A stretch of DNA of 64,000 nucleotides. It comes from Harriotta raleighana (Eukaryota). Below, piece after piece: positions 2,161 to 56,895 of the stretch. A program made the position numbers and the translations under genes. Each line of letters opens with the position of its first letter. Position 1 is the stretch's first letter. The notes below the pieces were generated by a model. That model was not told the DNA's origin. It worked only from the letters and a program-made list of their open reading frames with translations, and did no database searches. The stretch is from contig JBNZDD010013729.1 of NCBI GenBank assembly GCA_050575255.1, positions 9,550,312 through 9,614,311 on the forward strand, read 5' to 3'.

Positions 2161-2454
<294 letters not shown>

Positions 2455-8653: not shown

Positions 8654-8816
8654 CTACGGGTTTGCTGTACCGTTGGCTGGTATTAAATGTGTGTTTGTCC
8701 ACATCGGAACCATCAACTCCTCAATGTCATAACCCACAGCAAACAGGAAATAAACTGGGAGAAGCCAGTGTAAAGAGAATACCCTGGGACTTGTGGCCAA
8801 AGGCACGGTGATATGT
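8654..8816 (-). CDS. Permease-like gene, last coding exon: (K)HITVPLATSPRVFSLHWLLPVYFLFAVGYDIEELMVPMWTNTHLIPANGTANP*
   Basis: - strand acceptor ttttacttatttcag. Phase 2 matches the previous exon. Hydrophobic helix LHWLLPVYFLFAVGY; TAG at 8656-8654. Confidence 0.88.
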
Positions 8817-9274
8817 CTGAAATAAGTAAAATAATCCAGTTAATATTGGCACTTTATATATATATATATAAAAAAAGTACACGCATTCAATGGCAAACTT
8901 GACAACTCACTCCACTATTAAGCGCTTTGAGGCGTTGATAAGATGTGAAAAGCTCTATATCAAATGCAAGGATTATTATTATTATGTTCACCAACAACTT
9001 GCATGATATAGCGCCCCTCAAGCAGGCCAGCCAGAGCAATTGGAAATATTCCTCTTGTAAACTTCTAAAAAGTTTTAAAAACATTTTTACTCAATTTCAG
9101 GTTGCATTTGTCTTTTAAGTCACCAGCTGCACAGCGCATGAGGCTATGACATTAATACAGGTGTGAGTTGATCAAGAACACTCAGAAAAGGAAGTTTAAT
9201 GTCTGAAACAAAACGTCAAAGTATCAGCTGTCTCCGGACCTGACTAATGGAAAGATGAAATTGACAGTACTTAC

Positions 9275-9378
9275 TTGTATGGCTCTGACTGAGAATTGTG
9301 CAGCATTAAGAAAACAAACAAACCAGCTTCGAGGTTTAAAGCGAATGAAGCGACTTTATCGAGCAACACAACAAAGCC
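9275..9378 (-). CDS. Permease-like gene exon: GFVVLLDKVASFALNLEAGLFVFLMLHNSQSEPY(K)
   Basis: Acceptor ttgctttctacag, donor gtaagt. 104 nt. Contained in ORF 9271..9480 (-). Confidence 0.9.
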
Positions 9379-10323
9379 CTGTAGAAAGCAATAAAACATC
9401 ACAATTTTGTGGCTGTGCATTTTCACTGGGAGAATTCTCCTCCCATCACACCTCACTAGTTTAGCTGAGCCAGGTGACATGAAGTTTAAACTGCTTGTTC
9501 CAAGATTTATTGCGTTTCACCTACAAGTACTGTATACAGTTGATTTACTTTGCAGTATATTCTGTGAAGCTCTTTGAGATTTTGATAAGATGTGAAAAGT
9601 GCTATATCAAATGCAAGGATTATAATAATTATTATTTAAAGCAACATGTCATTTTCATTAACCTACAAATAGGGTTAAAAACTGGAGCTCTGACAAAGGC
9701 TTGTCTTTTCAGTTCAGAGTTCAGTTTAGGTACCCTGCTCTGTATAAATTGGATGGGACCTGTTCACACACAGTCTCCTTCGTTCTCTACACAGACAATA
9801 AGATAAACGGGACACAGTACAATACAAATACAACCAAAGAGGAAATAAAGGAAAGCTGAATTTAGCAGAATAGCCAACTCACTTTGAACTGAATTAAACG
9901 TTCAAAATTTGAGAACAAATATTGTTTATGTGTGCTTGCTAGATAAGACAAATTAATTGACCTGACATCTTCACATCAATATGAGATTTGCTGTTTCTGT
10001 GTCAATACTAAAGGTAAAAGGTTGGCACAGATCCAAATTTTACATCCAATGTCACTTTATAAAACCATGAGGTGCAGAGAACAATTAGTGGGACATCCTG
10101 AATGTGGCTCTTAACATTTCCCGTCTTGTTTATAAAAGGGCAGCACTTTTTGGGGGGAGAAAAAAATCTAAACTTTAATATAAATTGAAAGTTTGATTGA
10201 CATTACTGATAGTACATTGTGTATTTATTTACTAACATTGCTAGTATAATGCAAACCAATACTGTGTTTTCTCAATGTGCAATGACATTTTAGGTCCATT
10301 AAGAGAGAAATGGTGAAACCTAC

Positions 10324-10393
10324 CTTTGAATCAGACATAGCCACAGTAAAAATAATGCTGAACGATAACAGGCTGACACTCGTCTTTGTGATG
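10324..10393 (-). CDS. Permease-like gene exon: (S)ITKTSVSLLSFSIIFTVAMSDSK
   Basis: Branch ctaac, acceptor tccattcacag, donor gtaggt. 70 nt. TM-like segment; phases match both neighbours. Confidence 0.88.
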
Positions 10394-10691
10394 CTGTGAA
10401 TGGACAGAGGAGTTGCTGTTAGTGTTTTGGTTTCCAAGATATGCACAGAGAGTGAAACACAAGTGACACCTGGATATAAAGCCACCGTTTGAACATTAAT
10501 AAGAGTGGACGAGGAGAGGTTATGTGGGGAGAGGACTTTCCTCAATATTATTTGTGTAGACACTTCTGCATAGTGGTCAACAGCAACAATAACAACAGCT
10601 TACATTTATATATTTAGTGCCCTCCATGCCAGGCGGCGTCTCAGAGAGCTTAAATATAGCTCAAATATATCAATATTTTTATTAGCCAATA

Positions 10692-10986
10692 ATAATCCTT
10701 GCATTTGATATAGCGCTTTTCACATTTTATCGACGTCTCAAAGCACTTCACAGAATATAAGGTAAAGTGAATTAACTATATGTGGGTGAAACGCAGCAGC
10801 CAATTGCGCACAGCAGTGTCCCCACAAACAGTCATGGATTGAAATAATTAATTTATTACAGGTTTTTTGAGGGATTATATGTGGTGCGGAGGAAGGAAAC
10901 TTGCCCAAGGTGTCGCCCTGCCTGGATTTGAACACAGGACTCACACTTGTAAAGCGAGTACTCTATCACTGAGCTATAGGACTCCT
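10692..10986 (-). mobile_element. Full-length tRNA-derived SINE (Deu-like core, L2-type tail)
   Basis: Reverse complement of a head with Pol III A/B boxes, core gctgtgcgcaattggctgc and tail ...gcaagg(att)n. Confidence 0.88.
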
Positions 10987-11354
10987 TCAGATGTATTAAT
11001 ACATACATTCATATTTAAATATTAAAATATAATATTCATATAATACATTATGTAAATGACACTTATGTAGCCTCTTTCACGTCAGGAGGACGTCCCGGTG
11101 CAGATAAAGAACTGCACCAGTAAACGTAGATTATTTACAGACTAACAGTGAGCTTGAACAAGTTGGATACTCGTACGTTTATTACTAAGTGCTCTAAGAC
11201 ACGGTCTGGCGTGGAGCTCGCTATATAAATAAAAGTTATTGTCGTTGTTTAATCTCTAAAAGCTAATAATACACCCCAGTTCTGTGTCTGGCTATTTAGT
11301 GAGCCGTATTTGCCATCTGATAACTCTGCTCACGGGATCTGCTAAACCATTACT

Positions 11355-11670
11355 GAGATCCTACAGCTCAGTGGTTAGAGCACTCACCTTACAAGCATGA
11401 GCCCTTTGTTCGAATCCAGTCAGATCAGGGCGAAACCTTGGGCAAGTTTCCTTACTCCTCACACTTAATAATAATCCCTCACCACAATAATAAAATTGGT
11501 TATTTCAACCCACGACTGTTTGTGGGACGCTGCTGTATGCAATTGGCTGCTGCGTTTCGCCCACAAACATACAGTCAATTCACTTTACAGTATATTCTGT
11601 GAAGGGCTTCGAGATGTCGATAAGATGTGAAAAGTGCTATATCAAATGCAAGGATTATTATTACTATTTA
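11355..11670 (+). mobile_element. Full-length tRNA-derived SINE
   Basis: A box agctcagtggttagagc, B box gttcgaatcc, core, hairpin tail and (ATT)n end. Confidence 0.9.
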
Positions 11671-11920
11671 TTCTGCATCATTTATACTACACCTTAAGAG
11701 AATGAAGGGAGTGGGGGGGGGGGGGGCGGGTCGACTAATTGACTGTGCTGGGTAAATGGAGGACAAGTTGCCAAAAATGCAACATAAAAAATTAAAATAA
11801 AAAATTATTTGAAAACATACCATGTTAATAATAGACTAAATAGTAACAGAATATTGTACGGATACTTACCAATAAAGCATTCCAGCACATTCGGTAAAAC
11901 GATTTATTGAAAGCTTTAAA

Positions 11921-11986
11921 TTAATTAAACGTACGAACCTGGGTTTTTTACCGATCAGTAAAAAACCCAAGTTGTAAGTTTAATAA
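11921..11986. repeat. ~66 bp imperfect palindrome / hairpin
   Basis: ttaattaaacgtacgaacctgggttttttac-cgatca-gtaaaaaacccaagttgtaagtttaataa. The arms are near reverse complements. Confidence 0.85.
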
Positions 11987-12422
11987 GTGCGCATGCGCAC
12001 GCATTGCACACATGTGCAAAATGAGCAAACTTCCAATTGCTGGAATGGGGAATTGTCCCGGGAGAGGGGGGGGGGGGGGTCGAGCAATCCGGTTGATCGG
12101 GTCACGGATAAACGAGGTCTTACTGTATATTCCTTTTTTTTAAAAACTCTCGTCAAATGGACTCGAATTGTTTGGCTTTTCAGTCGACATCAATGCTTTA
12201 TTTATTTCCATTATTATCGCTGTCAGAGGTCTATAATTTCCACAATTGTGCTTTCTGACCTTTTCCAAAGAGAGACAAAACATGAGCAATATTATTCGAA
12301 CGTACTAACAGAATTCGTTCGTCTCAGGTTTCAATAAATCCACTCTCGGTATTGTTGACGAGTTTTATCTTTTTCTCCTGTTTTCTGAAGCCGAAGCGCA
12401 AGTAAAAGATTTTCTTTTGTAC

Positions 12423-12513
12423 CTTTTAAAACTCCAAATCTTATGGAGCCGTGGGCAGTTTTCAGAGGCCCCCTCACACCGTCTGCTCCAGAATGAATCC
12501 ACCCATCCTTCCA
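12423..12513 (-). CDS. Permease-like gene exon: (L)EGWVDSFWSRRCEGASENCPRLHKIWSFK(S)
   Basis: Acceptor tttcccttgcag, donor gtacaa. 91 nt. Bridges phase 1 to phase 2, as the flanking exons require. Confidence 0.82.
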
Positions 12514-25372: not shown

Positions 25373-26936
25373 ACTTTACATTTATATTCTGTGAAGCGCA
25401 CTGAGATATCCAGAAGACATGATAATGCGAGGGTTATTAGTATTATTATTATTATTTGCTGTATTTTCTATGAAGTGAGATAGCTACAGCCTCTTAGGAC
25501 TCATTTCCACAATTCCGTTACACATTCATCTTCTCGTGTGGAAGCATCGGAATCAACTTTCGTTAATTTCTGGCAGATTTGCAAAGGGAAACAGAGCAAT
25601 GCCATGTACAGTACGTCCCACAGGAGCAATGCAGAAAGTTTCTACTATGGTTGAGTCCCTGTTTATAGAGGCATTTATTTATAACAGAAATCTCAAATTA
25701 CCACAGATCTTCGTCTCATACGGCAACCCAGATCCGAATTATTTAGAGTGCTTCTCTGTCACGGCTCATTATAACATAATTCTCTATTGAGTTTGATATT
25801 CAATCATCTCTCAATCCTTTCCCACAAAGCAAGATGGATCATAGTTTTGTTCTATTTTATTCTGAACGGCTGCCTACAGAAAGTGGGAAATTAAGAGATT
25901 GCAATGTGAGCGTGAGATGGAATAATATTTCATGTTCAGCGCGAAAGATTAAAAATGTCTGAAGCTAAATGTTTCATTTCCGTGGGGGGGAAATTCATAT
26001 TTCAAAGGTGATACCACAAAATATTTTACGTCCACAAAATACAGTCAATTCACTTTACAGTACATTCTGGAAAGCACTTTGAGACATCTAGAAGGCCTGA
26101 TAAGGAGCTACATCAAATGCAAGGATTCTTCTTATTATTTTTCATTATAATACAATACAAATTGACATTTATATTGCGCCTTTCATGTTGGGGAAGGTGT
26201 CCCAAAGTGCTTAACAGTACTGCCTGGACAAACAATTTAATCTGACTGATTAGGCCAATTTAACTGATTACATTTTAATGCTTGTTCCTTTATTGTGCGA
26301 GATACCTCTGAGATTCACAGGAAATGAAGATAAATGAAGAGATAGTATTTCTGTTGACGGGAAATCTAGATTTTAACAACAAGGAGATGATAGGAGGAAG
26401 AGGAGCCAGGAGAAAATGAAAGGAAAGCCTCGACTAAAGATCAGTTAAGAGGTAATATGATAGGCTTTCATTACAGCAGTAAGTTAGAAGGTTACAGTAA
26501 GCGTGGGGGAGGTGGGGGGGGCGAAGAAAAATAACTGTCTCCAATGAGAAACTGCATGAAGATGTTCTGACAATTAATATTTCAACACAGCAAATGAAGG
26601 TATCACTTAAAGGAGTGAAATCCATCATTTTATCTATATCGTGTTTAACATTAATATCACCGGGCCCTGCTGTATGGAACATGCGCTTTTGAAAATGAAA
26701 CCCCCTCTTCTCTCCCCATCACCAGAAAATATACATCAGATCCTAAGCCGACAAGTAAACAGTAAATAGTATAACTGCACTGCCCAGCCCCATAGCCATG
26801 GAGGTAAATAAAACAATTTTACTGGCTCTTGCTGACCTTGTGGAAAGGCATTGGAATAAAGGTAAATTCTTTCACTGTGTTTTGCAAGACAGGCATTGTG
26901 AAATATTCTTGCACCAAATGTTTTCTTCCTATTTGT

Positions 26937-27233: not shown

Positions 27234-27532
27234 CTAACCTGCAGGCACAGGAAAGTATCACTAGGGGACAGCCATGCACTGCTCCTTTTATTCACACACT
27301 TGGAAAAAGAAACGCATTTGGAAATGTAAATAGGTCACATCTTCTCAATACCCGGTGATTTATCTGATCCGACACAAGATTTTTGCTTAATAAATTTGCA
27401 ACAAGAGAAAATTAATCATTTGAAATATAACTTCGAACACCTGCTACACACACGCCTCATTAAAATCCGATCGATTAGAAAATCGCTAATGTTTCGTTTG
27501 ACAACAGGACAAAATCTATTTGAGTTGGGGGT

Positions 27533-28272: not shown

Positions 28273-29375
28273 CTTGCAGCTAATCAGTGATTTGTTTTTG
28301 AACTTCAAGTGGGAAATCAATTTGATCTTAACACCTTCTCACTGAGAACCTGTAAGAAATATCCACTTTTATCTTCTCACCCTGGTTTGGGGGCACAGAG
28401 ACAGGAGATCAGAGCTCAGAAGAAAAGTTAATGGGCCAGTCGGTGGTCTTAGAAAATGCCTGAGACCTTAATACTATCACCCTAGATCTTTGTGCACTTG
28501 GAGCAGCCCGGTAAAGCCACATCTCTGAAGAGGATTGTTGGCCTGGTTCAGTATCAGAAGGTTGTGAGTTCAAATCCCACAATCAAAACAAACCTATCCC
28601 TTCAATCACTTGTTCTGTTGTTCAATACAAAACAGGTTATCATGATCCACATTATCTTACAGCTAATTGAGTAATTGAACATCTCGTAATTACACCAGCA
28701 ACTACAGTAATTTTGTTTTCGCTGGGACAAAAATGTCGATATTTTCAGCAAGTACTGGATTTGAGTGTTGGCTGTTGTTGTCTGTATCTATGTTGCTATG
28801 GTTACCATTTGGGTGATTCTTTTCACATCTGATGCAGTGGGAAGTGAAGTATGTTGTAAACAACACAAACACTACCAAAGTGAATATTTAATTGTTTAAT
28901 ATTTTTTCTGTGTGTATATGTGCGCGTGTGTGTATGTGTGTGTGTGAGTCTTACTCAATGATTGTTGGGAGATATGTTGACTAAGAGATCTTAGCCCCCA
29001 TAAAATTATGGCATTATTGCTATTGTCAAGATAAAAAGTTACAGTTTACACTATTATCTATTTGATGAAAAGAAATATAATTTAGGACAATGTTATCTTT
29101 CAGAGCATTTGTTCAGTGTCCAGACTATAGCACAGAGTGAAGCCATAACAGCCATCAGCTATCAAAGAGAAACTGTGGTAACTCTTGGTGACTCGTCTAA
29201 AACACATGAAAGTATTTGTGGCCTTCGACAAATTGAAAGAAACAAGATAATCATTACACCAAAGTGCATGGAATTCAAGGTTCACTCCCACCAGCTCGTC
29301 CTCCGTCAAAGGCCTAAAGGTTTATGTGTGATGGAAGCCAAGTAGTCTGAGGGAGCTGGTGAATACAGAGTGGAN

Positions 29376-29847
29376 TCTTAGAAAATGCCTGAGACCTTAA
29401 TACTATCACCCTGGATCTTTGTGCGCTTGGAGCAGCCCGGTAAAGCCACATCTCTGAAGAGGATTGTCGGCCTGGTTCAGTATCAGAAGGTTGTGAGTTC
29501 AAATCCCACAATCAAAACAAACCTATCCCTTCAATCACTTGTTCTGTTGTTCAATACAAAACAGGTTATCATGATCCACATTATCTTACAGCTAATTGAG
29601 TAATTGAACATCTCGTAATTACACCAGCAACTACAGTAATTTTGTTTTCGCTGGGACAAAAATGTCGATATTTTCAGCAAGTACTGGATTTGAGTGTTGG
29701 CTGTTGTTGTCTGTATCTATGTTGCTATGGTTACCATTTGGGTGATTCTTTTCACATCTGATGCAGTGGGAAGTGAAGTATGTTGTAAACAACACAAACA
29801 CTACCAAAGTGAATATTTAATTGTTTAATATTTTTTCTGTGTGTATA
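29376..29847 (+). repeat. 472 bp near-identical copy of 28447-28918, bounded by single Ns (likely haplotig or assembly artefact)
   Basis: N at 29375 and 29848. Only about three substitutions seen relative to the first copy. Confidence 0.85.
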
Positions 29848-38687: not shown

Positions 38688-38812
38688 TGTGTGTGTCTGT
38701 GTCTCCGTGCGTCTATGTGCGTGTGTCTGTCTGTGTGTCTGTATTCGTCTGTGTGTGGATTTGGGTGTGTATGTATATGTCTATGTCTCCATGAGTGTGT
38801 GTGTGTGTGTGT
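38688..38812. repeat. Degenerate (TG)n microsatellite
   Basis: Direct inspection. Confidence 0.8.
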
Positions 38813-41469: not shown

Positions 41470-41640
41470 CATGTATGTATGTGTTTGTTTGTATGTGTGT
41501 GTCTTTGGATGTGTGTGTATGCGAGTGTATGTGTGTGTGAGTGTGTATGCCTGGATATATGTGTGTGTGAGTGTCCGGATATGTAGGTGTGTGTATGTGC
41601 GCTCATGTATATGTACATGTGCTCACACGTGTAAATACAC
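41470..41640. repeat. Degenerate (TG)/(TA) microsatellite
   Basis: Direct inspection. Confidence 0.8.
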
Positions 41641-43225
41641 ATATTACGTATTCTATTATTGTTACAACAAAGATAAGCATGACTTAAAAAGGCAAACATA
41701 CTGAGCTGACTAAAGCGGAGTATGATAAATAAAAGAACTGATGGGCATACATATTTTATAGCGGATTCCTGCTGTCCACAGGGAAACATTCAGCTTGCCT
41801 TAGGTCCATATTATTTTTCAACTCATTAATTCTAGTTACCAAAATACTTTTCACCCACAGTATGAAGGTTGCATTCGTTTAGCTTCTTGTCCTTCTATTT
41901 GTTACATAAAACATGAATCTCTTTGAAGTGCAGCCCATAACATATTCATGCATGTAAAATCAGTATGTTTCAAACTGTGCGGTAATAAAGTATTCACACG
42001 GTGAAAAATATATTAATTCAAAATAATCTATAAATAATATATTTAATTATTAAAGCTTATTTTGCTCATGGTTTGTATGGTATCAAATGTAACACCGAAA
42101 GTCTAGGTGACAAGAAGTCAAATAATCCTTTGCTGAGCAAAACTATCCGCAAAATGAAACCGCTTACAAATAAATAAGTAATAATTATTTATTAAAAACG
42201 GCGTTAGAACTGCGGTTTTAAAAGCTGTTTTTTTAGACAAAAAATTGTTCGTTTTGAATTCTCTCTCTTGTTCTGCTGGCAATGCGGCTGATCTCAAAGT
42301 AAAACACAAGTAGCAGCATTTGTTCTGCACACTCATGTTACGGGACAGATCATTGCCGTGAAAATCAATTTATGGGATTAAACAAAATGTACTAAATGCT
42401 ACAATGTTATAATAAAAACAGTAATAATCCATACGTTTGATATAGAACCTTTCATGTCAGAATGTCTCAAAGCACTTTACAGGCTTTAAAGTGGAGGGAG
42501 TGTGTATTTTATGAGCAAATGCTGTGTTTTATGTTACATACAACTTAAATACAGCAACAACTTTGCAAGTTATAAGTGTTTCAGAGTTTTTAAAGTCTTT
42601 CGCCCACAACTATCCAGTCATTTCACTTTACAGTATATTCTGAGAAATGCTTTAAGATGTCTAGAAGACATGAAAAGCACTGTATCAAATGCAAGGATTA
42701 TTATTACTATTATTATTCATTCCTATGAATAAAACACATCCTATGAATGCCAGATGCGGTTGAATTGCATAAATACTCTTGTGCTTCTAATATTTACAAC
42801 AGTCTTTCCACCTTTTCATTGCATGGTTAAAACATAGATATTATTCTAATTATGTCCTGTTTATATTGAGATGGGCGTTATTTTCCTTGTTGTATTTTCC
42901 CGCTGTATCCTTGCTCGAGGCTCTAAACATTCTGAATGAGGGCAATCACCAGGTGCAAGAGGATGATAGATGTTTGGGGGAAACAGGAATCAAATTCTCA
43001 TAGGTACCACAGACCTGCTGGCTGGTGCCCGGAGTAAACCATACACTGCGGAAAAGCGCAAAAAGACGTAGAAATGGAATCCTCAACAGTCGGAGAGTTT
43101 CCGATAACACACCACATTATCAATCAAATTTTCAGCCACACCCTCGCAATACTTTGGGTGCCACTTACACCCTGACACTGAGCTGCTGAGGCAAAGTGAG
43201 TACATATGCCTTCATGTTATTAAAT

Positions 43226-43485
43226 GGATTCCTGTAGCTCAGTGGTTAAAGCACTCGCCTTGCAAGCAAGAGACCTGGGTTGGAATCCCGGCAGATCAGG
43301 ATGAAACCTTGGGCAAGTTTCCTTGATCTACCACGCACGTGTACAAACATACACACACATACACACGCCTGATAATAATCCCTCAAAAAAACTATCCTAA
43401 TTGGTCATTTCAATCCACGATTGTACGTGGGACACTGCTGTGTGCAATTCGCTGCTGCATTTCACCCACAAATACACAGTCAAAT
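43226..43485 (+). mobile_element. SINE lacking the tail, with an internal CA expansion
   Basis: Head and core match the family. Confidence 0.82.
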
Positions 43486-44909
43486 ATAAGGAATATGCAC
43501 AAATGTAAGGACAATCAGCACATCAAACGTGACTTTTTGTTGGCCGTCACAGATTGTTAACAGTCGCTTCAAATGCGACCGTCCAATTCAGGACATTTTG
43601 TATATCGCTCAAGTAAATTGGATTTATCTTTGATATCACCCAGCCCAGCACCATCAACAATAACTGTAAGTTGGTCTAAATTGGTGTTTTTGATTCACAA
43701 AAGATTTCACTTCAAGACACACCTCTAACATTTTCCACATTGCTGGGGGGGAAAATCATCCAGTCAGATACAAGCATGTGCCTCGTCAGGATTAATATCT
43801 ACTGTGTGTGTACCAGTCACTAAAAATAATGATCGGTTTCTTTACTTGTTTATAATTGGGGGCTTCTCATCAGAACTATCGGTGTGCGTTAAAAATACAA
43901 GGATTATTATAATATTATTATTAACCCCCTGTTGATGAGTAATTGCTTTCAAAAGTGGCTTTAAAATCCAATTAGATGTTTTAAAATAACTGGACTGGTA
44001 AATAAGAGATCTTTCCTATAGTTCCCACTACATTCATCTGTCTCAGGATCTAAATCCTTCACGACAGTTAATGACCCGTATTCATCTTTTTCGCAAAAGA
44101 TGCTTTCCTGTCGGAAAGTCAAACAAAACGGGTAACTGGAAATGTCGTCCAGTTTGGGTTCAGATGATGTTATAAATCACACCAGCCTTGATGTCATGGT
44201 GCCTAGCATCATCTAATGGTTTCAACAAGATTATTTTCCTGTAATCGCTCCCATTAATTGCTGTAGGATTCACTGATATGTCTGCAAAGCTATCTATTTG
44301 CATAATATGATCATTTGCATACTCCTTATGAATGGCTCATTGGCCTCAAAAACACTTTGACCATGAAATTTTACATTACTAGTTAATGTAATTACTGTTC
44401 ACTAATGGCAGGGTTTTAGTGTGTAAATGCAAAGCTGATGCATTTGACGCTTTAATTGATGCTAAACTAGGATCTGGATAAAGCATTTAAAGACATTGTT
44501 GTAGGTCATTTTGTGCTGTTAAGCAAATCATTTGTGATGATATGTTGGGAGCGCAAATTGTATCTGCTGCAGATACACACACACACGACCAGACGGGGGC
44601 GTTGACGAGGGACACAAAGGGAATTCCTGTTGGATTTCTCCCTCTATATAACCTGGGATGGCTTGGGGTCAATTTAGCATCTTCACAGATCCTAGTTAAC
44701 ACCAGCCAGAAAACACGGTTAGGGATCAGGGTTCAAAACTGCAGTCCTTCATCCACAGTTCCATCTACTATGGACATGGCTGTCCTCTGTCTGTCCAGCG
44801 CCTTGGGATGTCATCCCAATGTGAAAGGCACTATACAAACATAATTTTGCTGTTGTTATTCTTTTATTGTCACGCAGTCAGTTAACAACAGACTAAAACA
44901 GACTAAGGC

Positions 44910-45235
44910 ATGGAGTCTTTAGTAGCTCAGTGGTTAGAGCACTCGCCTTACAAGCATAAGACATGGGTTTAATTCCAGGCAGGTCAGGGTGAAACATTGG
45001 GCACGTTTTCTTACTCCACACAGTTAATAATAATCCCTCAAGAAAAAACCCAATAATAAATTGGTTATTTCAATCCACAGACTGCTTATGGGACACTGCT
45101 GTGTGCAATTGGCTGCTGCGTTTTATCTACATGTATACAGTCAATTCACTTTACAGTATATTCTGTGAACAGATTTGAGATGTCTAGAAGCTGTGAGAAG
45201 GTACTGTATCAAATGCAAGGAATATTATTATTAAT
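44910..45235 (+). mobile_element. Full-length SINE
   Basis: Family consensus. Confidence 0.88.
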
Positions 45236-46504
45236 ATTAAGAACTGTCACTTATATATACAGTATATTTCTTTAAATGTTGTCACCATTTGAAATAATTA
45301 TTCCCCAAATGGTTATTAGTTCCACTTGAGGCTGGAAGGGTTGTTTGTGTTGGAATCCTCTTTAAACATTGATGGGGGTTGGCATCACAGGTTTGTATGT
45401 TTGACGCTGCAATGTAATGATAGGCTTTTCACAGCAATCCACCGCATTAGGTTTCAGGCGAATTCCTGTGCGGAAAACGCAATGGAGATTGTCCAGTCAG
45501 TGTAAAGTGCCCTCCTGGATCAGTATGAAGCATTCTCACCTCTGACACTGAAGCTGGTGAGTCAGGTGGTTATTTTGAACTGATATACTCCAGTTTGGCG
45601 ATGTCGGACATACACTTGAATCCACTTGACAATATATTCCGTGAAGTGCTTTGAGATGTCTCAATGCCGCGACGAGGCTCTTTAAGGTCAAAGGTCTTCA
45701 AACACTGTACAGTGCTTGGGTGGGTAGGGGGCGGGGATTTGCTGCTTTGCTGAAGCTGCTGTGGTTTAGATTAAACATATTACATAGAGGATGTTAAAAA
45801 TCCTCTATTTTGGAAAGAGGAGGGAGTTTCTCTCATTGTCGCCAACAATTTCCCGGATTACACTGGATGCTCACTACTTGTCGGTCTGTGTAAACTGGCT
45901 TTGACATCCGCCTGCAAAATACACAGTCACCACACTACAGTAAATACTTCGTGACATCCTTTTGAGGTTTAGTATCAACTTCTGTGGTCATCTGTCAACA
46001 CTCAAGGGATTTGTTGTTGATGTCGCGGCATTGAAATAAATATCCAATTTAAAATTATTTAACTACCTCTCAGAGCAGAACATATAAATGAAACTTCACC
46101 GCTGCTCCGTACTGTGGCTCTGGTAGAAATGATATTGCTTTGCTTACACCAGCCTAAACTCAGCAATGTACACCTCTCTCAATGTGACAGCATGTGACAG
46201 AACACAAGTAACAGAACATCAAACATCAAGTCTATGACAGTGAGCTGTGTTATACTTAATGCATGTTTCTATTGTTTATATCTCCATTCAAACACCTTGG
46301 GACGTCCTTCTGATGTGAAAAGCGCTGTATAAATGTGACATTGTTGGTGATCTTGTTGTTGAAATATCTCCTTGGATTTGGTTTTGTTTGACAATAACAT
46401 TTACCAACTAAAAGAGAAGATTGAAGAAATACATTTGTAAAGTGCGCTTGGCTGGATTTGGAGCACTGATTGAAGGTGGTAACACACATATAATAATACT
46501 TAGA

Positions 46505-46786
46505 ATAATCCTTGCATTGGATATAGCGCTTTTCATCGACGTCTCAAAGCTCTTCAGGGCATATACTGCAAAGTCAAATGACTGTGTATTTGTGGGCGAA
46601 ATGTGGCAGCCAATTCCACAAACAGTCGTAGATTGAAAGTAACCAATTTATCATTTGATTTTTTTGAGGGATTATTATCAGGTGTGTAGAGTAAGAAAAC
46701 TTGCCCAAGGTTTCGCCCTGCCTGGAATCGAACCCAGGTCTCTTGCCTACAAGGCGAGTGCTCTAACCACTGAGCTACAGGACTTC
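46505..46786 (-). mobile_element. Full-length SINE
   Basis: Family consensus in reverse. Confidence 0.87.
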
Positions 46787-48281
46787 ATAAAAAATAATAA
46801 TAGTAATCCCTGCACTTAATATAGAGCTTTATAATAATAATTCTTGCATTTGATATAGCGCTTTGAGACGTCGATAAGATGTGAATATACTGTAAAGTGA
46901 ATTGACTGTATATTTGTGGGTAGAAAGCCAGTTTTCACTACATAAAAACACAGAGGATGAAAAGTGAGTTGTGTCATTTAACTGCATTTAAACAGCCACA
47001 AAAGATGCGAATAACATAATCTATTATCTCCCAATTGTGAGGCTGCCCTTTTTTTTTACCGTTACATCTAGAAAATGAAAAGATGCTTCTGAGAAAAATA
47101 ATATGTAGCTTTATGGAGACTGAATTATTCATAACCAAATTGCACTTGATATCTTTTATCTTCACTGAATAAGAAGCTACAGGGTGTCCTCAAGAATAAT
47201 ATATTAATGGTTTCACACCTGACATGGTATTAAAAAAAATCCAGCTAACTAAATATGAAACGGAATGCATTAACTTTATGTGGGCACTCTGCTTCCACTC
47301 ACTAAACAATAGAAAAAGCATTTAAAAATGTAACTTTATCAGGGTTACCTCCGTGCATAATATCCTCACAATTTTCAAATAAAATACCATCCTCCCTGCA
47401 CAATGGCTGATTATTTAAGCGTTTTATTGTTTTTTTTTACACAGTGAATTTTCACAGTAATATTTTTTCCCCCCTTGTTTACCAGTCTGTCTCTGCAAAG
47501 CACTTTGGGACCCTTTCCTAAGTCGTAGATGTTTTACAAACGCAGAACGGTTTGTGAACCTACGGCTCAGTTGGTGGCTTATCAAGCCTTTAAATCAAAA
47601 AGCTGTGGGTTCAAACCGCTTTAAATCACGTTAAGAAACTCTGTAAGCCAGGCCAGGCCGAATTTAAAAACATTACAATTCCTAAAAACTCAGCAAAGAA
47701 CAACAATCTGAATCCTGAGTTACTGGTTACCGTAAAATGATTTAGCAAGGATTCAATCACAGAATCGAAACTTGTGACACAAACTGTGAACCAGCAAACA
47801 CAGCCCTACTCCACAGCCACCAATTTAAAGCCCATTCATTCCAGTCCATCAACAGCCTCGATACTTATCTCAGTGCAGCCCAATAAACCATCAGAGCCAA
47901 GAACTCAGGCAACAATAATATAAAAACAGACCTCGCTGAGATTCTTCGGGTCGATGAAGAAAAATTGTGAATAAGAATGGTCTTGGTAAACATCAGGAGA
48001 GATGGGAACATTGGCGACTGCTGCAAATGGACATTGACTTGGGCGGAAGTAGCATGCGGGTGTTGAGGCTGTTGAATATTACTGAGCCAAGCTATAAATG
48101 AATATCACTGAGGTTCTAAAAGAAATTACGGTCTGAAATTTTTAATAAAAAAGAGTCATTGATTTTGTTATGAAGCTATTGTGTAGAAGTGAAGGAACTG
48201 AAAGATGTAGCAAAGGGTCTTAACCTGGTGAGAAAAAGGGATTTACTCTGGTGAGGAGGAGTGTGTAACAGTGTGACTTAC

Positions 48282-48324
48282 CCTGGTGAGGGGGAGTGTG
48301 GCTATTTCTCCTGCCATTTCTGAG
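48282..48324 (-). CDS. Permease-like gene small exon: (A)SEMAGEIATLPLTR
   Basis: Acceptor ttttttttcttgcag, donor AGG|gtaagt. 43 nt. Phase 2 to 0 joins the 56767-56895 and 19774-19888 exons in frame. Confidence 0.85.
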
Positions 48325-49154
48325 CTGCAAGAAAAAAAAACAAGTAGAGGGTTTTTAAAAATGTAAAATATAAAAGTAGAAAAACAAAGTGTAACAGGGG
48401 AGGGGGTGGAGGAGGGGATGGAGGAGTGCAAATTTCAAACCATCCTAATTGCACAAAGTGTTCATGATCTACAAAATGGGAGAGTTGTGAAAACTCCTAA
48501 CTTTCTTATTTATTGTGGAAAAGTCTTTCAAACAACCCAATAAAATTAACAGTATTTAATCATTATCAGTGTTATTAACTCCAACAGATGTCACTGGACA
48601 GTGTGTAATAGGTGATATCCCAGCATTAAAAAAACCTCCAGCTTAAATTTCCTTTGGAAGGTTCCCGTCAACATGGAATTCAACTTCAGTTTGTTTCCAC
48701 CAGCCCAGAGTTGGGATTTACTTGGGATTCAGTTCATTTTATTCAACTTGGAAATCAAAATGAATAGCCCCAGCAAGCCATCCTCTGATCAACTGGCAAT
48801 CGGGTTCCTACTTACATTAACAACGACAACAAAATTACATTTATAGAGCATCTTTCATGTCGTGAGGACGTTCCAAGGTGCTGAATGCCAGGTAAACAGT
48901 TTGGAGTGAGGAAGGACACAAAATACAAGTTTTGCATGTAGATTTGGTTGATCAGTAACTAACTGAATGCCAAAGAACAGTTTTCACAGCCAGCGCACCG
49001 TGAAGTTGTTTAACTGTGTGTTTTTTTTCGTTGAAAGTCATGAATGTGAACAAGTCTGCTCTAGTTAATAAAAAAAAATTGTGGGGACATTAGATGCCTG
49101 TGGGAGCCATGGAAACTTCCTGTGTTCTTGTGGTTCGGGCTACCATCTCATTTT

Positions 49155-49402
49155 AATAATAATAATCCTTGCATTTTATATAGGTCTTTGCACAACTTAT
49201 CGACGTCTCAAAGCGCTTTACAGAAGATACTGTAAAGTGAATTGATATATTTATAGGCAAACAAGGCAGCCAATTGCGCACAGCAGTGTCCCACAAACAG
49301 ACATGGATTGAAAATTTATTATTATTGTGTTTTTTTGGGATTTATTAGACGTGTGGAGTAAGGAAACGTGCCCAAGGTTTCGCCCTGACCTGCCTGGATT
49401 CG
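49155..49402 (-). mobile_element. SINE copy with truncated head
   Basis: Family consensus in reverse. Confidence 0.85.
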
Positions 49403-51813
49403 TAAGGCACTTTTAGAATCTAATCAGGTACAGATCCTAATGCTGTTACACATGGAGTAAAATGCTGAAACCTAAGGTACCAGAGATTTCGTTCTAGCAC
49501 CAGAACTATTAGTCATAGTTCCCAGAGACTGAAACTGTCTTGCATTTTCACCAGCTGCCAAACCATTTCAGACGTTTAAAAGGACAACCGTACGCTCAGT
49601 GGAAAGCCCTGAAAAGCCAGCCACAAGGCATTGTTTGATGATTCACATGTTTGTGCAGTGGGACTCAACGGTAGAAAGAGATTGAGGTCACCTGTTTGTG
49701 AGTATGACACACTGGCTGATGCAGCCTTTTGTGAGAATTGATTAAATTATAGTAATAATCCTTGTATTTGATACAGCGCCTTATCATATCTTCTAGACAT
49801 CTCAAAGTGTTTCATAGAATGTACAGTAAACTGAATTAACTCTATATTTTGTGGGTGAAACTGAGCAGTCAATTGCGCGCAGCAGCGTCCCACAAACAAT
49901 CCAGGGATTTTACAGGGAGTGTGGCAACCAGGTTCCTACTTACTGCTCAGTAAACGGAGGCATGTGGAGTAAGGAAACTTGCCCAAAGTTTCACCCTGCC
50001 CTGGAATTGAACCTGAGTTCTCTCGCTTGCGAGGCGAGTGATCTAACCACTGAGCTGCAGAACTCTATAGAAAACAGGACTCCTCCATTGTCTTATTCAA
50101 AGCTATGCACACACGCAGTGACACAAACATTTACAAGTTTCACTGATAGCGACGAAAGCTGGGGAAAGAGGGGGAACAGAGCAACCAGCAGAGGGTGTGA
50201 AGTGTGGATAAGAGTATTGGGTGGGACGAGGAACGTAGGGATTCTTCCAAGACGGGAGTCGATCGACCATTTATTCCTCTTTTCTTTCTAGGCTTTAAAC
50301 TGAACACTTTAGGTTTTCAACTGCATGGTTTAACTATTCTTTTACAAAAACCCTTCAGGTCAAATATCGACCTGGGAAACACGAGGAAAAGGCAATTAAT
50401 TACATTCAATGAACAGTGAACAAACCAGCATTGATGGAATATTTTTATTAAATACATTAACCTTTTGTTAGTGGTGTAGTTTAATAGCTGACGTTTTCTC
50501 GTGTGTGCAAACTCCTGGGAATGTGGCTTTGAGAAACAAAAATTGCATCATATAAAGACATTACAGTGATAAAGCCATAGTAATCTATTTCATTAAAAAC
50601 TAAACCTNTAAGGCACTTTTAGAATCTAATCAGGTACAGATCCTAATGCTGTTACACATGGAGTAAAATGCTGAAACCTAAGGTACCAGAGATTTCGTTC
50701 TAGCACCAGAACTATTAGTCATAGTTCCCAGAGACTGAAACTGTCTTGCATTTTCACCAGCTGCCAAACCATTTCAGACGTTTAAAAGGACAACCGTACG
50801 CTCAGTGGAAAGCCCTGAAAAGCCAGCCACAAGGCATTGTTTGATGATTCACATGTTTGTGCAGTGGGACTCAACGGTAGAAAGAGATTGAGGTCACCTG
50901 TTTGTGAGTATGACACACTGGCTGATGCAGCCTTTTGTGAGAATTGATTAAATTATAGTAATAATCCTTGTATTTGATACAGCGCCTTATCATATCTTCT
51001 AGACATCTCAAAGTGTTTCATAGAATGTACAGTAAACTGAATTAACTCTATATTTTGTGGGTGAAACTGAGCAGTCAATTGCGCGCAGCAGCGTCCCACA
51101 AACAATCCAGGGATTTTACAGGGAGTGTGGCAACCAGGTTCCTACTTACTGCTCAGTAAACGGAGGCATGTGGAGTAAGGAAACTTGCCCAAAGTTTCAC
51201 CCTGCCCTGGAATTGAACCTGAGTTCTCTCGCTTGCGAGGCGAGTGATCTAACCACTGAGCTGCAGAACTCTATAGAAAACAGGACTCCTCCATTGTCTT
51301 ATTCAAAGCTATGCACACACGCAGTGACACAAACATTTACAAGTTTCACTGATAGCGACGAAAGCTGGGGAAAGAGGGGGAACAGAGCAACCAGCAGAGG
51401 GTGTGAAGTGTGGATAAGAGTATTGGGTGGGACGAGGAACGTAGGGATTCTTCCAAGACGGGAGTCGATCGACCATTTATTCCTCTTTTCTTTCTAGGCT
51501 TTAAACTGAACACTTTAGGTTTTCAACTGCATGGTTTAACTATTCTTTTACAAAAACCCTTCAGGTCAAATATCGACCTGGGAAACACGAGGAAAAGGCA
51601 ATTAATTACATTCAATGAACAGTGAACAAACCAGCATTGATGGAATATTTTTATTAAATACATTAACCTTTTGTTAGTGGTGTAGTTTAATAGCTGACGT
51701 TTTCTCGTGTGTGCAAACTCCTGGGAATGTGGCTTTGAGAAACAAAAATTGCATCATATAAAGACATTACAGTGATAAAGCCATAGTAATCTATTTCATT
51801 AAAAACTAAACCT
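49403..51813 (+). repeat. 1205 bp tandem duplication (49403-50607 / 50609-51813) around a single N, likely an unmerged contig overlap; each copy carries a SINE
   Basis: ORFs 49851 and 51057 are identical (offset 1206); N at 50608. Confidence 0.9.
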
Positions 51814-53717
51814 GTCAATAAATGGCAATATTCCTGCAAATTCAATCGGTGTTTAAAAGGACTAGTCTATTTTCTCCCCTTTAGGTTCCTTTGTCCTTGT
51901 CCTAATCCACTGACAAAAATATTGTGGTATGACATATTCACAAGTTACCACCAGCGCATAATGTGTACACTGCAATCATGTTCTTTCTAATGCTATGTCT
52001 CAATCTGTGCCTGTACCTTGGGGAGTGAATTTGCTCCGAGTCATAATAACATGGAAGTTATGGAGCAAGTTGGATGATTTTTGCTACTTGGCCTCTGAGT
52101 TAGAAAGCTGTGACTTTGGCTTCAAGCCTCACATCGGGTCTCATACGTTTGAACACAATGTTGGTGGGGGAGGGGGGAAAGGGATGGTTATGCTCGGTTA
52201 TGCTCAGCCAGACCGCTGTTTTTGCTCTACCGGAGTCTTCAACCAGTCCTTTCTCCCTCCCATACCCTCTATTCCCTTCTCCCTCCATGTGAAGATCTAG
52301 TTTCCTCTATTCCGTCCTTCAGATGAGATGCTAAACCCAAACTCCTGCCTGTCTATCTGTCTGTGAATCTAGTGCATATTTTGCGGGCGAAACGGATACA
52401 GTCACTACACTTTAGAGTATATTCTGTGAAGAGCTTTGAGACGTCTTGAAGATGTAATAAGGTGCTGTATCAAATACAACAATTATTATTATTATTCTGC
52501 TGCCTGTTGAGCAGAATTGTAGTGACTCACTATCTTTAGTGCTGCATATTCACAATATATCCACCAAACTCACTCAACACCCAAGGAGGAGTAGTCATGC
52601 TTGACAAAGCAATCCCTAATGTTACTGCATTCTGCAATGGGCTGCGGCGAAGATTAAGGAGCTATATAAATGTAAATTGTGTTGCATTGTATAAAATGAT
52701 ATGAGTGAAGTTACAGGTTGCCATAGCTGTAAATTGGGGCAATGTTGTAGACTCTTTTTGTTAGCATAATCTTGACAAGTGTGAGCTTCAAAAGATCCAG
52801 TAACATTCGTGGCTGTGTCGAGGCCGAATTGTTGTAAGAATTCACTGTCTCGTCATGAATTTTGCAATGAAACAAGGGTCAAATCTGTGGGAGAGAAAGT
52901 GGAGAAGGGAACAATGCTGCTCAGAGCGGCAGAGTGTAGATGGACCTACTGTGAGTAATGACAGCACTGGGGTAAGTCAGTGAGCGATGGGAGGCTTGCA
53001 ACGAATCATGCCAGGGTGAATCCCGCCGAAGGATGACAGCTTTGCAGTGAATCTTTGTAAATAACTGGACCTCCGCCGCAGCGCAAGCATCGCTTCAACA
53101 AATGGAAGGTGGGCGACGAGACCTTGTAAATGAAGATCCACTGCGACAAATCACTGTGTAAAAATAATACAAAAAGCGTCTCGAGAAGTGTCAAACGCCT
53201 GCGGAGAATCAGAGGGATTGCGAAAGAGTCCTTCACAACAAGACTGCTGCAACAGCTACCCCAGCCCTCACCCTAACCTTGACAACCGGGAGGCGCTGGG
53301 AATCCTCAATAAACCACACGAGAATCAAACTCAATCGTACAACAACTTTTTCCACTTTCATTATTGCCTTTGGGTAGAATTGAGTGAAGTCTCAGCATAT
53401 CTTAAACCATACTAATAAATATAATAATAATCCTTGCATTTGATTTAGGGCTTTTCACGTCTTCCAGACGTCTCAAAGTGCTTCGCAGAATATATTGTAA
53501 AGTGTCAGGGAATCGGCGAGACTTGGGGTTGTGGGTGATTTTCTGCCCCTGTTGTTGGGGTAGATTTTACAGTGACACTGACCAGTGAAGGATGAAAATG
53601 GACTAATTCAGCAGTTCATCCTGTTTGTACCAATTTAGCTCCCCAATGATTGAAACCAAGCCTTTTCTTGCCATACAAATGCTTTCCACTGTTAGGCTGG
53701 GTCAGTGACAAATAATG

Positions 53718-53830
53718 AAAGTTAACTCACTCTCCTCTCTCCATAGATGCTACCTGACCCGATGAGTGTTCCCAACCATTCCTGTTTTTATTTCAGATTT
53801 CCAGGCATCCACAGTATTTTGTCTCTTGTG
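53718..53830 (+). mobile_element. Short retroelement-terminal remnant (Penelope-like or related; family uncertain)
   Basis: catagatgctacctgacc..tgagt.ttcc...catt.ctgtttttatttcagatttccag.catc..cagtattttg resembles a repeat I recall from cartilaginous fish genomes. Confidence 0.4.
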
Positions 53831-53844
53831 CAAAAAAAACGCAC

Positions 53845-54335
53845 AATAATAAAATTGGTCATTTCAACCCACGACTGTTTGTGGGGGCAATGCTGGGCAC
53901 AACTGGCTGCCGCATTTCACCCACAAATATACAGTCAATTCACTTTACAGTATATTCTGTGAAGCGCTTTGAGACGTCTAGACCAGTGGTTCTCAACCAG
54001 GGGTATATGTACCTCAGAGGGTACAAAATTACTTCCAGGGGGTACAGGTGGTAGTACATTGATTTATTTAGCTTTTATTTAGCGTTTTATAACCTTCCAA
54101 ATTGTATATTTAATTGTTATTCCCCTCGTTTTGTATGTGCTAGTTATTTTGCTATATAAGAAAAGCTTGGTCATAAAATGCAAGTGGAATGAGGAGGGTT
54201 GGTGTGTGTGTACATGTAGTTGGGTGGGAGTACACGGTAATGTTGAAAATGAACAAGGGGTACATTACCGAAAAAGGTTGAGAACCACTGGTCTAGAAGA
54301 CATGGAAAGAGCTGTATCAAATGCAAAGATTATTA
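53845..54335 (+). mobile_element. Partial SINE (core and tail) interrupted by a hAT MITE
   Basis: Tail gagacgtctaga|MITE|gtctagaagacatggaaagagctgtatcaaatgcaaagatt. Confidence 0.85.
53984..54290. mobile_element. Second copy of the hAT MITE, 307 bp
   Basis: Perfect 15-bp TIR cagtggttctcaacc / ggttgagaaccactg. TSD GTCTAGAC / GTCTAGAA (one mismatch). Highly similar to 32401-32708. Confidence 0.9.
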
Positions 54336-54974
54336 AAATGGCAAACGGCTGTGCTGTGGCTACTAACAGCCCAAACTGTAAAGTTTTGAATGTAATTGAT
54401 TGGCCCGACAGCCTATGTTTTAAATTGTTCCAACTTTAGAAAACTCCCAGCTTAACAAATAATAATAATAGTAATAATCCTTGCATTTGATATAGCGCTT
54501 TTCATATTTTATCGACTGTAAAGTGAATTGACTGTGGCAACTGATAGGCTTCACATGACGGGCGACAGAGGTGGAGGGACATTCTGTCATCAGGGAGCAC
54601 AAACCCACGATAGCAACAACAACAGCACTGATATAGCACATGCCACATGTACAGCTGTCAACAACTGCTGAAAGAGCGTAAACCACCTGTGACCTGTATC
54701 TAGGGAATAATTTATAGCACAATAGAGCTAACAACAGGGCAACAGACTCAAATTAGCTCCCAAGGGAAACAAAACAGTAATGTGACCACAGGAAAGGGCT
54801 CAATGGAGAAACTTTCTGGATGGGATTTCACAAGATCACAAGACTGGCTTGGATTGAGAAGGTCCTTCTGCCCATTTAATATTCATGACCCCAAATCCCT
54901 CCCATCGCCCTGCAAGTTTCTGTTTGTTAGATAAATCATAGATGTTGGCTTGAGCCACTCTCCCTGGTAACCTG

Positions 54975-55262
54975 TGAGGCCTGTAGCCCTGCCTTACAAG
55001 CGTGTTTAAATCCAGGCAGCACAGGGCGAAACCTTGGGCATGTTTCCTTACTCCACATGCCTAATAATAATCCCTCCAAAAAAAACCACAATAATAAAAT
55101 TGGTCATTGGTCATTTCAATCCACGACTGCTGTGCGCAACTGGTTGCCCTATTTTGCCCACAAATATACAGTCAATTCACTTTACAGTATATTCTGTGAA
55201 GTGCTTTGAGATGTCTAGAAGACATGAAAAACGCTATATCAAATGCAAGAATTATTATTATC
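54975..55262 (+). mobile_element. SINE with degenerate head
   Basis: Core and tail match the family. Confidence 0.82.
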
Positions 55263-56766
55263 CAAAGAGACTTTATTTAAAGATTTCCTAAAATTCAGGT
55301 AAATATTTTATGTTCTATCCTGATAGAGAGGTAAGCCAGGGTGTAGGCGGTGGTGAGTTACCTGGGATCAGAATTTGTGGCATTAAAGATGTTCTCAGCT
55401 CCTGTTATCCTCTCACTAATGTATGGCCCAAAGGGAGCATTTGAATTTTTTTTTATTGTGCACCACATATGGTTGTTTTGCAAATAAAATAGCTGCAGTG
55501 GATCCACTAATTCCAAGTGTTCTGCAGATGGCATTGTTGTACTGCAGCTCGAGTGTTTCTCCTGCATTCGATTCTGTCAGTGTCTGTCATCATAGTTCCT
55601 GCATCTCACTACTTTCTCACGGACAGAGAAAATCTTGACTTGAACCCTCACCAGTGACAGTGTTTAATATTCCCACTGGCGGCTTTAGCAGCATTGTATA
55701 CTGTGCTCCAGCTCGCTCCGACCTTGCATTAGAACATTTCTATAGTCAATATCCATTCAATTTTCAGTGTATCCTGTAATAACCTTTGAGACATCTCCGA
55801 AGTGTGATGGGGTGCTACATCCAATGCAAAGATTATTATTATTATTGTGTTTCAGCGTCCTCCTGACGTGAAAGGAGCTATACAAATGCATTTTTGTTGT
55901 TGTTGATGTTTCAATAGGTGGATGGAAAAGGAGATACCAGCCAAAGAAAAACGTGACAATAAAAATACAGAAAATACTGTTTACCCGCTCCCCCATTCCC
56001 GTTCCTCTACAATCAGAATTAAACCTGATTTTAGTATTTTTCTGTTGTATTCAATCCAGTCTGTTGTGTTTCTTGTTTGTGATGCACGCTTTGGCACCGC
56101 CACCAAGAACAAGCGTATTTTTGTTTACTTATACTGTATAAAGATTTCGAGATGTCCCAAAGCACTTTAGCAGAAAAATGTTCTCGTCTAAATTTTAATT
56201 TGCAAATGTGATCTCATCATGGCATTGGCCGTGAGAAAACACAATAACCCAAAGGGCTCACTTCCTCATTATCTCAAACATTTACTGTCTTCCCTTCTGG
56301 ACTGCATTGTGAAGCCTTAATCACAATTCCTGGTGGTGTTGAACTGCTCTGATCGCAGAGAATGTTTCTTCATTCAAGCTCATTATGTTGCCGAGATGAG
56401 AGCAACAATATCTTGTTGATTAGATAATGGAACGATTGTTCCAAACAATGTGGAGAAATGACACAGAGAGGACGAGGAGAGAAAAAACACACAAAAGTCG
56501 AAAATGCAAACAAATCTGAGAAAGTAATTAAAGTGGTCTCAGAAGCTCCTAATGCCTCATTTACACAAGATCACAGGAGAGATACTGTGACAAAGGTTGG
56601 ATGCTAATATGGGAAAAATTAGGCTAGTTATTGGGAAGAAATCAAACCGTCAAAAAGGTCTTCTTCATGCGTCCCTCTCCCTTGTGTGAAACAATCATCG
56701 CTAACTGCAGACAATAGCCAATTATAAGTATGTGGAATGAGAAGATAAATACCGTGGATTACTTAC

Positions 56767-56895
56767 GCCTCCAAGGATATATTGAAGTAGATGACTGTAT
56801 AGGCAGGTGGGATATGGCTACTGGTGTTCACACTTCCATCAAGTAAAACTTTCCGTGTGGATGTCTGAGGAACAATGTTCAATACAGCCCAACAC
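56767..56895 (-). CDS. Permease-like gene exon (most 5' found in window): (W)CWAVLNIVPQTSTRKVLLDGSVNTSSHIPPAYTVIYFNISLE(A)
   Basis: (TC)n tract and acceptor aag, donor gtaagt. 129 nt. End of a TM helix (WCWAVL.IVPQ) followed by a loop with sequons NTS and NIS. Confidence 0.85.

Follow-up and report, generated by a model that had tools for sequence, protein, structure and literature searches.

An unnamed family of predicted APC-fold carriers in Harriotta raleighana and other fishes, related to Trp/Tyr permeases and probably lost in tetrapods

Introduction

The HAAAP permeases (TC 2.A.42; PF03222), among them TyrP, Mtr, TnaB, SdaC and TdcC, have 11 helices, and TyrP, Mtr and TnaB are annotated as H+ symporters. 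The LATs of solute carrier (SLC) family 7 have 12 helices and a heavy-chain partner. According to two papers, a lysine in transmembrane helix 5 (TM5) replaces the Na2 ion in BasC, GkApcT and ApcT, whose transport requires this residue (PMC6472337, PMC8399266), and the first of them reports a TM5 lysine at the Na2 position for LATs too (PMC6472337). TMEM104, on the AAAP branch, is treated as an orphan in an SLC census (PMC9333335). The window analysed here, a stretch of 64,000 nucleotides of Harriotta raleighana (positions 9550312-9614311 of contig JBNZDD010013729.1, called C13729 below), holds the last exons of a minus-strand gene for a membrane protein which is compared with these carriers in the following sections.

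Gene structure

Seven short minus-strand exons had been predicted from the letters of the window alone, and all seven were found there with the predicted positions and lengths. The six introns between them have GT-AG sites and matching phases (6/6), and the spliced exons give one open frame of 715 nt, in which the lone stop is terminal; the other two frames contain 12 and 9 stops. The original prediction took these exons for a 7-exon gene, which is too small: they are exons 12-18, the last part of an 18-exon gene. The search it proposed for 5' exons beyond base 64000 yielded 11 when fish homologues were compared with the neighbouring 150 kb. The full model, obtained by homology search with fish proteins, after which the splice sites were fixed by inspection, has 17 introns, all GT-AG, and 1647 nt encoding 548 amino acids with no internal stop, the stop being codon 549. 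The gene spans about 157 kb on the minus strand of C13729.

Exons 1-4 lie at 165246-165135, 156926-156885, 154931-154858 and 151786-151718, exons 5-8 at 147965-147881, 133821-133686, 125872-125807 and 110442-110319, and exons 9-11 at 76168-76069, 67877-67819 and 67027-66963, all on the minus strand and in an extended window numbering, to which 9550311 is added for the contig position. They encode TM1-TM7, including the TM5 lysine (in exon 8; residue 229 in the 548-residue model), and a cytosolic loop rich in acidic residues. Intron 11 is 10,067 nt long in total; its 3' part occupies 56896-64000 on the minus strand, and it continues past the window end.

The exons in the window, again on the minus strand, can be compared one by one with the Callorhinchus protein P0002. 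Exon 12 (56767-56895, 129 nt; 41/43 residues identical) encodes the end of TM7 and the outer loop EL4 with two N-glycosylation sequons, and exon 13 (48282-48324, 43 nt; 13/14) the short helices of EL4. TM8 with its conserved S-x-T-x-S stretch comes from exon 14 (19774-19888, 115 nt; 38/39), the part of TM8 that extends into the cytosol, with the loop leading to TM9, from exon 15 (12423-12513, 91 nt; 25/30), TM9 from exon 16 (10324-10393, 70 nt; 16/23) and TM10 with a conserved Ser and Asn from exon 17 (9275-9378, 104 nt; 31/35). The coding part of exon 18 (8654-8816, 163 nt; 44/53) adds TM11, the outer C-terminal tail with a sequon, and the stop. A candidate polyadenylation signal, ATTAAA at 7254-7259 on the minus strand, is placed about 1.4 kb past the stop and may be the one used. 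The two loop sequons expected originally are thus present, with a third near the C-terminus in addition, and the "about five hydrophobic helices" amount to four whole ones, TM8-TM11, and the end of TM7 as part of a fifth.

Since 208 of the 237 residues encoded in the window are identical to those of P0002, exon after exon, a chance splice was rejected, and a pseudogene was rejected because the frame is intact. That the gene is real is practically certain. A Pfam scan of the six longer exons alone returned no family.

Exon 12 can be skipped in frame, and it is cleanly skipped in three cartilaginous-fish isoforms (P0001, P0004, P0051); its motif is absent in 5 of 120 records. The product is likely to be inactive, because it lacks both the glycosylated loop and the invariant Trp of TM7.

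Orthology and annotation

Compared with its counterparts, the 548-residue protein has identities of 88% (Callorhinchus), 72% (Heterodontus) and 62% (Polypterus); for a zebrafish isoform the value is 54%, for a scallop protein 48%. Judged by best matches, tree position and single copy, the gene is the orthologue of the uncharacterised fish gene si:ch211-51h4.2, a name that had been correctly proposed: most vertebrate matches are so named or called "uncharacterized". All 15 matches of the full-length query in the Harriotta genome fall inside the same locus, and therefore one copy was found. Orthologues are annotated across many fishes, so the absence of homologues that would have spoken against the gene was not observed; as NCBI already annotates them, the gene is a known annotation and not the hidden one it was called. 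The several NCBI isoforms in many fishes suggest transcript support, given the practice of the annotation pipeline.

The gene is catalogued in databases without a name or function. Full-text searches of main texts, with most subscription journals and supplements outside their scope, gave no publication naming si:ch211-51h4.2, LOC103175764 or PTHR16189. The symbol "51h4" is absent from the five supplementary files of the SLC census, which covers zebrafish and may list the gene under another identifier (PMC9333335). The gene itself is annotated; its family, fold, likely coupling residue and probable loss appear to be undescribed, as far as was searched.

Distribution and age of the family

A profile search gave 776 representatives at E<=0.001. 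Of these the best 150 were listed and 30 looked up, namely seven fishes, 12 entries without an organism, and 11 other organisms: a chiton, an abalone, an anemone, a crinoid, a sea cucumber, a rotifer, a sponge, a placozoan, a bryozoan, Chromosphaera and Cafeteria. Similar proteins in invertebrates and protists had been mentioned in the original prediction, and the sponge, mollusc, cnidarian, echinoderm and protist members bear this out.

The FastTree tree, rooted on Cafeteria, contains 166 of 168 sequences, two having been left out for short overlap. The jawed fishes form one clade (support 1.0), split into cartilaginous and ray-finned fishes, with the echinoderms as their sister group (0.98) and Chromosphaera just outside the animal clade; the Harriotta protein is sister to that of Callorhinchus (support 1.0). 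A tree in species order fits vertical inheritance from before animals, and by these sequences the family predates them. The description as a vertebrate lineage is too narrow, for sponges and protists have members, and too wide, for the only vertebrates in which the family turned up, among the homologues listed, are cartilaginous and ray-finned fishes. Searches of GTDB genomes and viral contigs with a 21-sequence alignment, which detect close relatives only, gave 22 and 53 pattern matches, none of which was confirmed.

Members of 800-1070 residues, including that of Cafeteria (P0180, P0182, P0183, P0187, P0222, P0229, P0231), have a best match that ends near TM8 and a long further part without a Pfam family. 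A sturgeon record named Protocadherin-16 (P0127) is the transporter fused to cadherin domains, likely a merger of gene models.

Nearest sequence families

The kinship to Trp/Tyr permeases suggested by the original prediction is upheld by HHalign, which aligned the family with HAAAP at 97% (E 8.6e-11, 330 columns) and placed the family TM5 lysine on that of TyrP. The HAAAP alignment consisted of eight E. coli proteins and three TyrP relatives, taken from 80 relatives of 80-100% identity returned by a TyrP scan. Against 16 TMEM104 sequences HHalign gave 84% (E 7.8e-6) over TM1-TM5; comparisons with a single TMEM104 half, a VGAT exon or Mtr alone were not significant. The family profile hidden Markov model (HMM), for its part, scored all 16 TMEM104 sequences at 21-34 bits and HAAAP at 12.6 at best, with VGAT-type proteins unreported. 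In the reverse direction the HAAAP HMM reached at least 20 bits in only 10 of 115 family members and the TMEM104 profile in none (0/115).

The Pfam matches are borderline. Aa_trans (PF01490, cut-off 25.6) matched none of six fish proteins (best 18.5 bits) and none of 47 representatives (best 22.6), while Trp_Tyr_perm (PF03222, cut-off 22) matched none of the six (best 19.8) and 18 of the 47, mostly over TM1 alone; a precomputed Trp_Tyr_perm match is present in 13 of 120 homologues. The Atlas neighbours have Aa_trans and Trp_Tyr_perm as their families, at 0.93. Because HHalign favours HAAAP and the HMM score favours TMEM104, the family is best placed, from its profiles, on the AAAP/HAAAP branch as neither one.

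The opinion that the protein is no familiar solute carrier agrees with the genome, where TMEM104 and VGAT occupy separate loci and show 15% or no significant similarity. No orthology to a named vertebrate AAAP member was seen, TMEM104 and VGAT-type proteins having been compared by sequence and SLC38A9 by structure only. The TMEM104 gene of Harriotta lies on another contig, C13730, and shares 95% identity with Callorhinchus TMEM104; a TMEM104 orthologue was rejected on that account. A VGAT-type gene is found on C13721, and two tandem VGAT-like frames with identical scores lie at C13717:6995845-7000613, where either an SLC32-like gene was duplicated or the assembly repeats one gene.

Absence from lobe-finned fishes and tetrapods

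The best 120 of 266 homologues of the Polypterus protein, counted by source name, comprise 119 cartilaginous or ray-finned fishes and one scallop; no lobe-finned fish or tetrapod is among them, in a search of the protein database only, with no tetrapod genome searched directly. An intact tetrapod orthologue would be expected to rank above the scallop protein. In a TMEM104 control against the same database, 65 of 120 rows were named lobe-finned fishes and tetrapods, including Latimeria and Protopterus, and six were unnamed; the control is inexact, with a partial query and a different length setting. The contrast of 0/120 with 65/120 suggests a loss on the lobe-finned/tetrapod line.

Several points weigh against a loss: 146 of the 266 matches lie beyond the best 120, only 7991 candidates of 309-986 residues were scored, and the clustering of representatives at 50% could conceal a tetrapod copy in the vertebrate clade. 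The seven unnamed representatives within that clade are 88-97% identical to named fishes. On the whole the gene has probably been lost in tetrapods, as judged from the homologues in the database. Of the 34 genes that the elephant shark paper gives as lost in tetrapods, none is described as this transporter in its Table IX.7 (PMC3964593). Six rows of that table, however, read "Uncharacterized protein" with Ensembl identifiers (PMC3964593); should one of them be this gene, its loss would already be on record, which weighs against novelty. If true, the loss would leave zebrafish and farmed fishes with an amino-acid-type transporter family without a human counterpart, and the genes that vertebrates gave up in becoming terrestrial would include one more transporter.

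Fold and topology

The structure of the shark orthologue P0011 was modelled with AlphaFold2 from a 115-sequence alignment. The model (predicted local distance difference test, pLDDT, 86.5; predicted template modelling score, pTM, 0.86) contains 11 long membrane helices, a disordered TM2-TM3 loop and a beta-hairpin in EL4, and its TM6 is broken at the conserved Gly 277. The matches listed by Foldseek are LeuT-fold carriers only; SLC38A9 is not among them, which excludes nothing. VIA-align placed SLC7A10 (Z 32.7, root-mean-square deviation (rmsd) 3.2, 383 residues aligned), LAX3 (32.3, 3.3, 393) and AUX1 (32.0, 3.3, 391) at the top, tied, followed by ApcT (31.0, 3.3, 375). In a wide structural search ApcT came first and SLC38A9 had Z 24.5 (rmsd 3.7, 329 aligned); the 44 rows with Z of at least 8 are all at or above 13.9, and the next row is at 7.4.

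These results bear out the APC/LeuT fold of the original prediction, with its helical core of 5+5 inverted repeats; the window covers the end of TM7 to TM11 of 11. On the other side, the model is that of the shark orthologue, 72% identical, and not of the Harriotta protein itself; Nramp and NKCC1, both at Z 28.9, trail the top score by less than 4; no solved structure exceeds 16% identity; PDB searches, made with a single protein and with two profiles of the family, found no transporter; and the DSSP line prints TM1 as one continuous helix, though the G-T-G motif is conserved. Searches of the PDB with the HAAAP and TMEM104 profiles found no transporter as well. With Nramp and NKCC1 scoring so high and identity so low, the fold gives the mechanism class and not the cargo. 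An APC-fold carrier is nonetheless predicted by the model with great confidence. A metal carrier of the Nramp type was rejected: Nramp TM1 bears an Asp/Asn motif, and TM1 of this family has no conserved Asp or Asn.

Of the fish records in which the segment could be cut out (from 120 in all), 113 of 113 have a sequon in EL4 and 109 of 111 one in the C-terminal tail; for the two cytosolic loops the counts are 13 of 109 and 5 of 104. This distribution lends independent support to a topology with the N-terminus in and the C-terminus out, which is predicted here, with EL4 and the tail glycosylated. The model and the sequons together give the AAAP layout of 11 helices, an inner N-terminus and a glycosylated outer C-terminus.

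Conserved residues and proposed mechanism

Residues are numbered as in the shark orthologue, and the "other" rows are the 81 representatives added after the named fishes. The TM5 lysine, K235 (K229 in Harriotta), is present in all 34 fish rows and in 98% of the 81 others, T232 of TM5 in 81/81 and S401 of TM8 in 80/80 of the other rows. Outside named fishes, S401, T403 and S405 of TM8 are conserved at 100%, 80% and 99%, and N314 of TM7 at 86%. The conserved clusters, G50-T51-G52 in TM1, T232 and K235 in TM5, T272-G277 in TM6, N314 and W317 in TM7, S401 and S405 in TM8, and S485 and N489 in TM10, fall where LeuT-fold carriers bind and gate their substrate. Among the eight E. coli HAAAP proteins, TyrP, Mtr, TnaB, CyuP and YhjV have the TM5 lysine, and SdaC, TdcC and YqeG do not.

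An 11-helix LeuT/APC carrier for neutral or bulky amino acids, sodium-free and with the TM5 lysine in place of Na2, is moderately favoured as the overall reading. An amino-acid cargo is likely, and Na+-independent transport, suggested by the near-invariant TM5 lysine, only slightly less so. The protein would operate by alternating access, independently of sodium, with the substrate held between TM1 (G-T-G) and an unwound TM6 (T-V-A-L-G-G), while the lysine would link TM1 to TM8 in the way known from ApcT, GkApcT and BasC. The near-invariant glycine of TM6 may provide a roomy pocket for the side chain. A coupling to protons like that of TyrP, Mtr and TnaB is about as probable as facilitated or exchange transport, since those three are annotated as H+ symporters and BasC is an exchanger. 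Some observations count against this scheme: chaining the family lysine to K158 of ApcT through HAAAP gave no matches, so that its placement at the Na2 site is conjectural; TM6 has no clean alignment to HAAAP; and BasC and the LATs have the TM5 lysine yet are exchangers, for which reason the residue is no proof of proton coupling.

The cellular location is the weakest step of the proposal. In the first inner loop an acidic run is followed by Leu-Leu in 109 of 109 fish records by a loose pattern, and such an acidic cluster with a dileucine hints at endosomes or lysosomes. The canonical [DE]xxxL[LI] form, against this, occurs in 1 of 109 fish loops, the DxxLL form in 102 of 109, not including the Harriotta protein, and outside fish the loose pattern is present in 9 of 80 rows. 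An endo-lysosomal location, although hinted at by these motifs, is rather less likely than not.

Alternative readings

The cargo may be a non-standard one, such as an aromatic acid, an amine, an osmolyte or a modified amino acid relevant to aquatic life, carried by the same APC fold. The auxin carriers AUX1 and LAX3 tie as the best structural match, TM6 differs from that of HAAAP, and the named members found all come from aquatic or moist habitats; the nearest relatives of known function, however, are amino acid:H+ symporters, and the G-x-G motif of TM1 is retained, which makes such a cargo rather unlikely. A Na+-coupled transporter of the SLC38 type, with the Ser/Thr residues of TM8 as the Na2 site, would agree with the conservation of S401, T403, S405 and N314 and with the 11-helix AAAP layout. 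The near-invariant TM5 lysine, though, would presumably fill that site, and the structural score of SLC38A9 is lower (Z 24.5), so that this type of coupling is improbable.

Less probable still is a lysosomal sensor or transceptor with little flux, like SLC38A9. The long acidic cytosolic loop with its Leu-Leu would suit a sensor, and the relative TMEM104 has been likened to SLC38A9 in the census (PMC9333335), but the N-terminus has a length of only about 35 residues, conservation is among the highest at the core residues for transport, and the loop motif is rare outside fish. That the protein has simply diverged from a named human SLC, for instance TMEM104, with nothing lost in tetrapods, has been largely refuted and is very hard to credit: the TMEM104 scores of the family profile and the HHalign match over TM1-TM5 point that way, but this genome has its own TMEM104, inter-family identity is 15%, the TMEM104 profile recognises no family member, and the family has sponge and protist members of its own. 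The sodium-free amino acid carrier described above is preferred to each of these.

Neighbouring genes

A convergent plus-strand neighbour had been predicted and was confirmed as a TBL1-type WD40 gene. The 3' end of TBL1XR1 (57-6705, plus strand) contains WD40 exons, of which that at 1983-2147 aligns with TBL1XR1 structures over its full length, in all 55 residues tested; it is a neighbour and not part of the transporter gene. Its stop at 3355-3357 and AATAAA at 6700-6705, on the plus strand, make the two genes convergent. About 20 kb upstream of exon 1, at C13729:9735186-9735359 on the minus strand, there is a TFR_dimer-type exon (a sub-threshold match) with a weak PDB match to a NAALADase-like structure (E 0.75). 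Peptidase_M28 had no match on contig C13729, and Atlas gave only unrelated matches below 0.9. The searches reached the family only; we take the gene to be NAALADL2.

In humans the gene nearest to NAALADL2 is TBL1XR1 (PMC7429505), and this adjacency fits the loss of a transporter gene between them. The boldest combination of these readings would describe an unnamed family of SLC rank, the closest animal counterpart of HAAAP and older than animals, which chimaeras, sharks and ray-finned fishes retain as a single copy and which disappeared at the origin of the lobe-finned fishes, so that NAALADL2 and TBL1XR1 became neighbours in humans; its members would be proton-coupled endo-lysosomal exporters, and the bulky or unusual amino acids they carry would be dealt with by other means in land vertebrates. 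Taken jointly, these statements are unlikely all to hold.

Other features of the window

Tandem duplicates, identical or nearly so (1205 bp, 472 bp and shorter), flank single N bases at 49403-51813, 28447-29847, 12647-12753, 16289-16459, 21531-21648 and 22531-22741, and are likely assembly joins and not real repeats. An interspersed repeat of about 320 bp, the size of a short interspersed nuclear element, has many intron copies that are 75-83% alike, for example at 19914-20236, 23889-24204, 25053-25375, 44911-45238 and 59671-59996. The longest open reading frame of the window, 20774-21586 (270 amino acids), is an artefact of a GT-rich 24-bp minisatellite.

Comparison with known systems

The closest known system is si:ch211-51h4.2 itself (LOC103175764 in Callorhinchus), from which the Harriotta gene, as its orthologue in a tree of species order, shows no substantive difference. 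The Callorhinchus records are incomplete or without exon 12, and the Harriotta model is full length.

With HAAAP the family shares a profile match over TM1-TM10, which takes in the TM1 motif, the TM5 lysine and the S-F motif of TM8, and the number of 11 helices. Unlike HAAAP it is eukaryotic, with 16% identity; its acidic loop on the cytosolic side has 60 residues, its EL4 is glycosylated and predicted to form a beta-hairpin, and its TM6 is another. TMEM104 is nearer than the VGAT-type proteins, the sole other vertebrate family compared by sequence, and has in common with the family a long charged TM2-TM3 loop and 11 helices; it differs in its separate locus, in the 15% identity, in being kept in tetrapods and in a C-terminal half that did not align. 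AUX1 and LAX3, the ApcT, GkApcT and BasC group and the SLC7 LATs have the same fold (Z 29-33, rmsd 3.1-3.4) at 10-16% identity, with no sequence-profile match to the family. The family is thus a distinct one inside a well-known superfamily and fold, and not a new kind of system.

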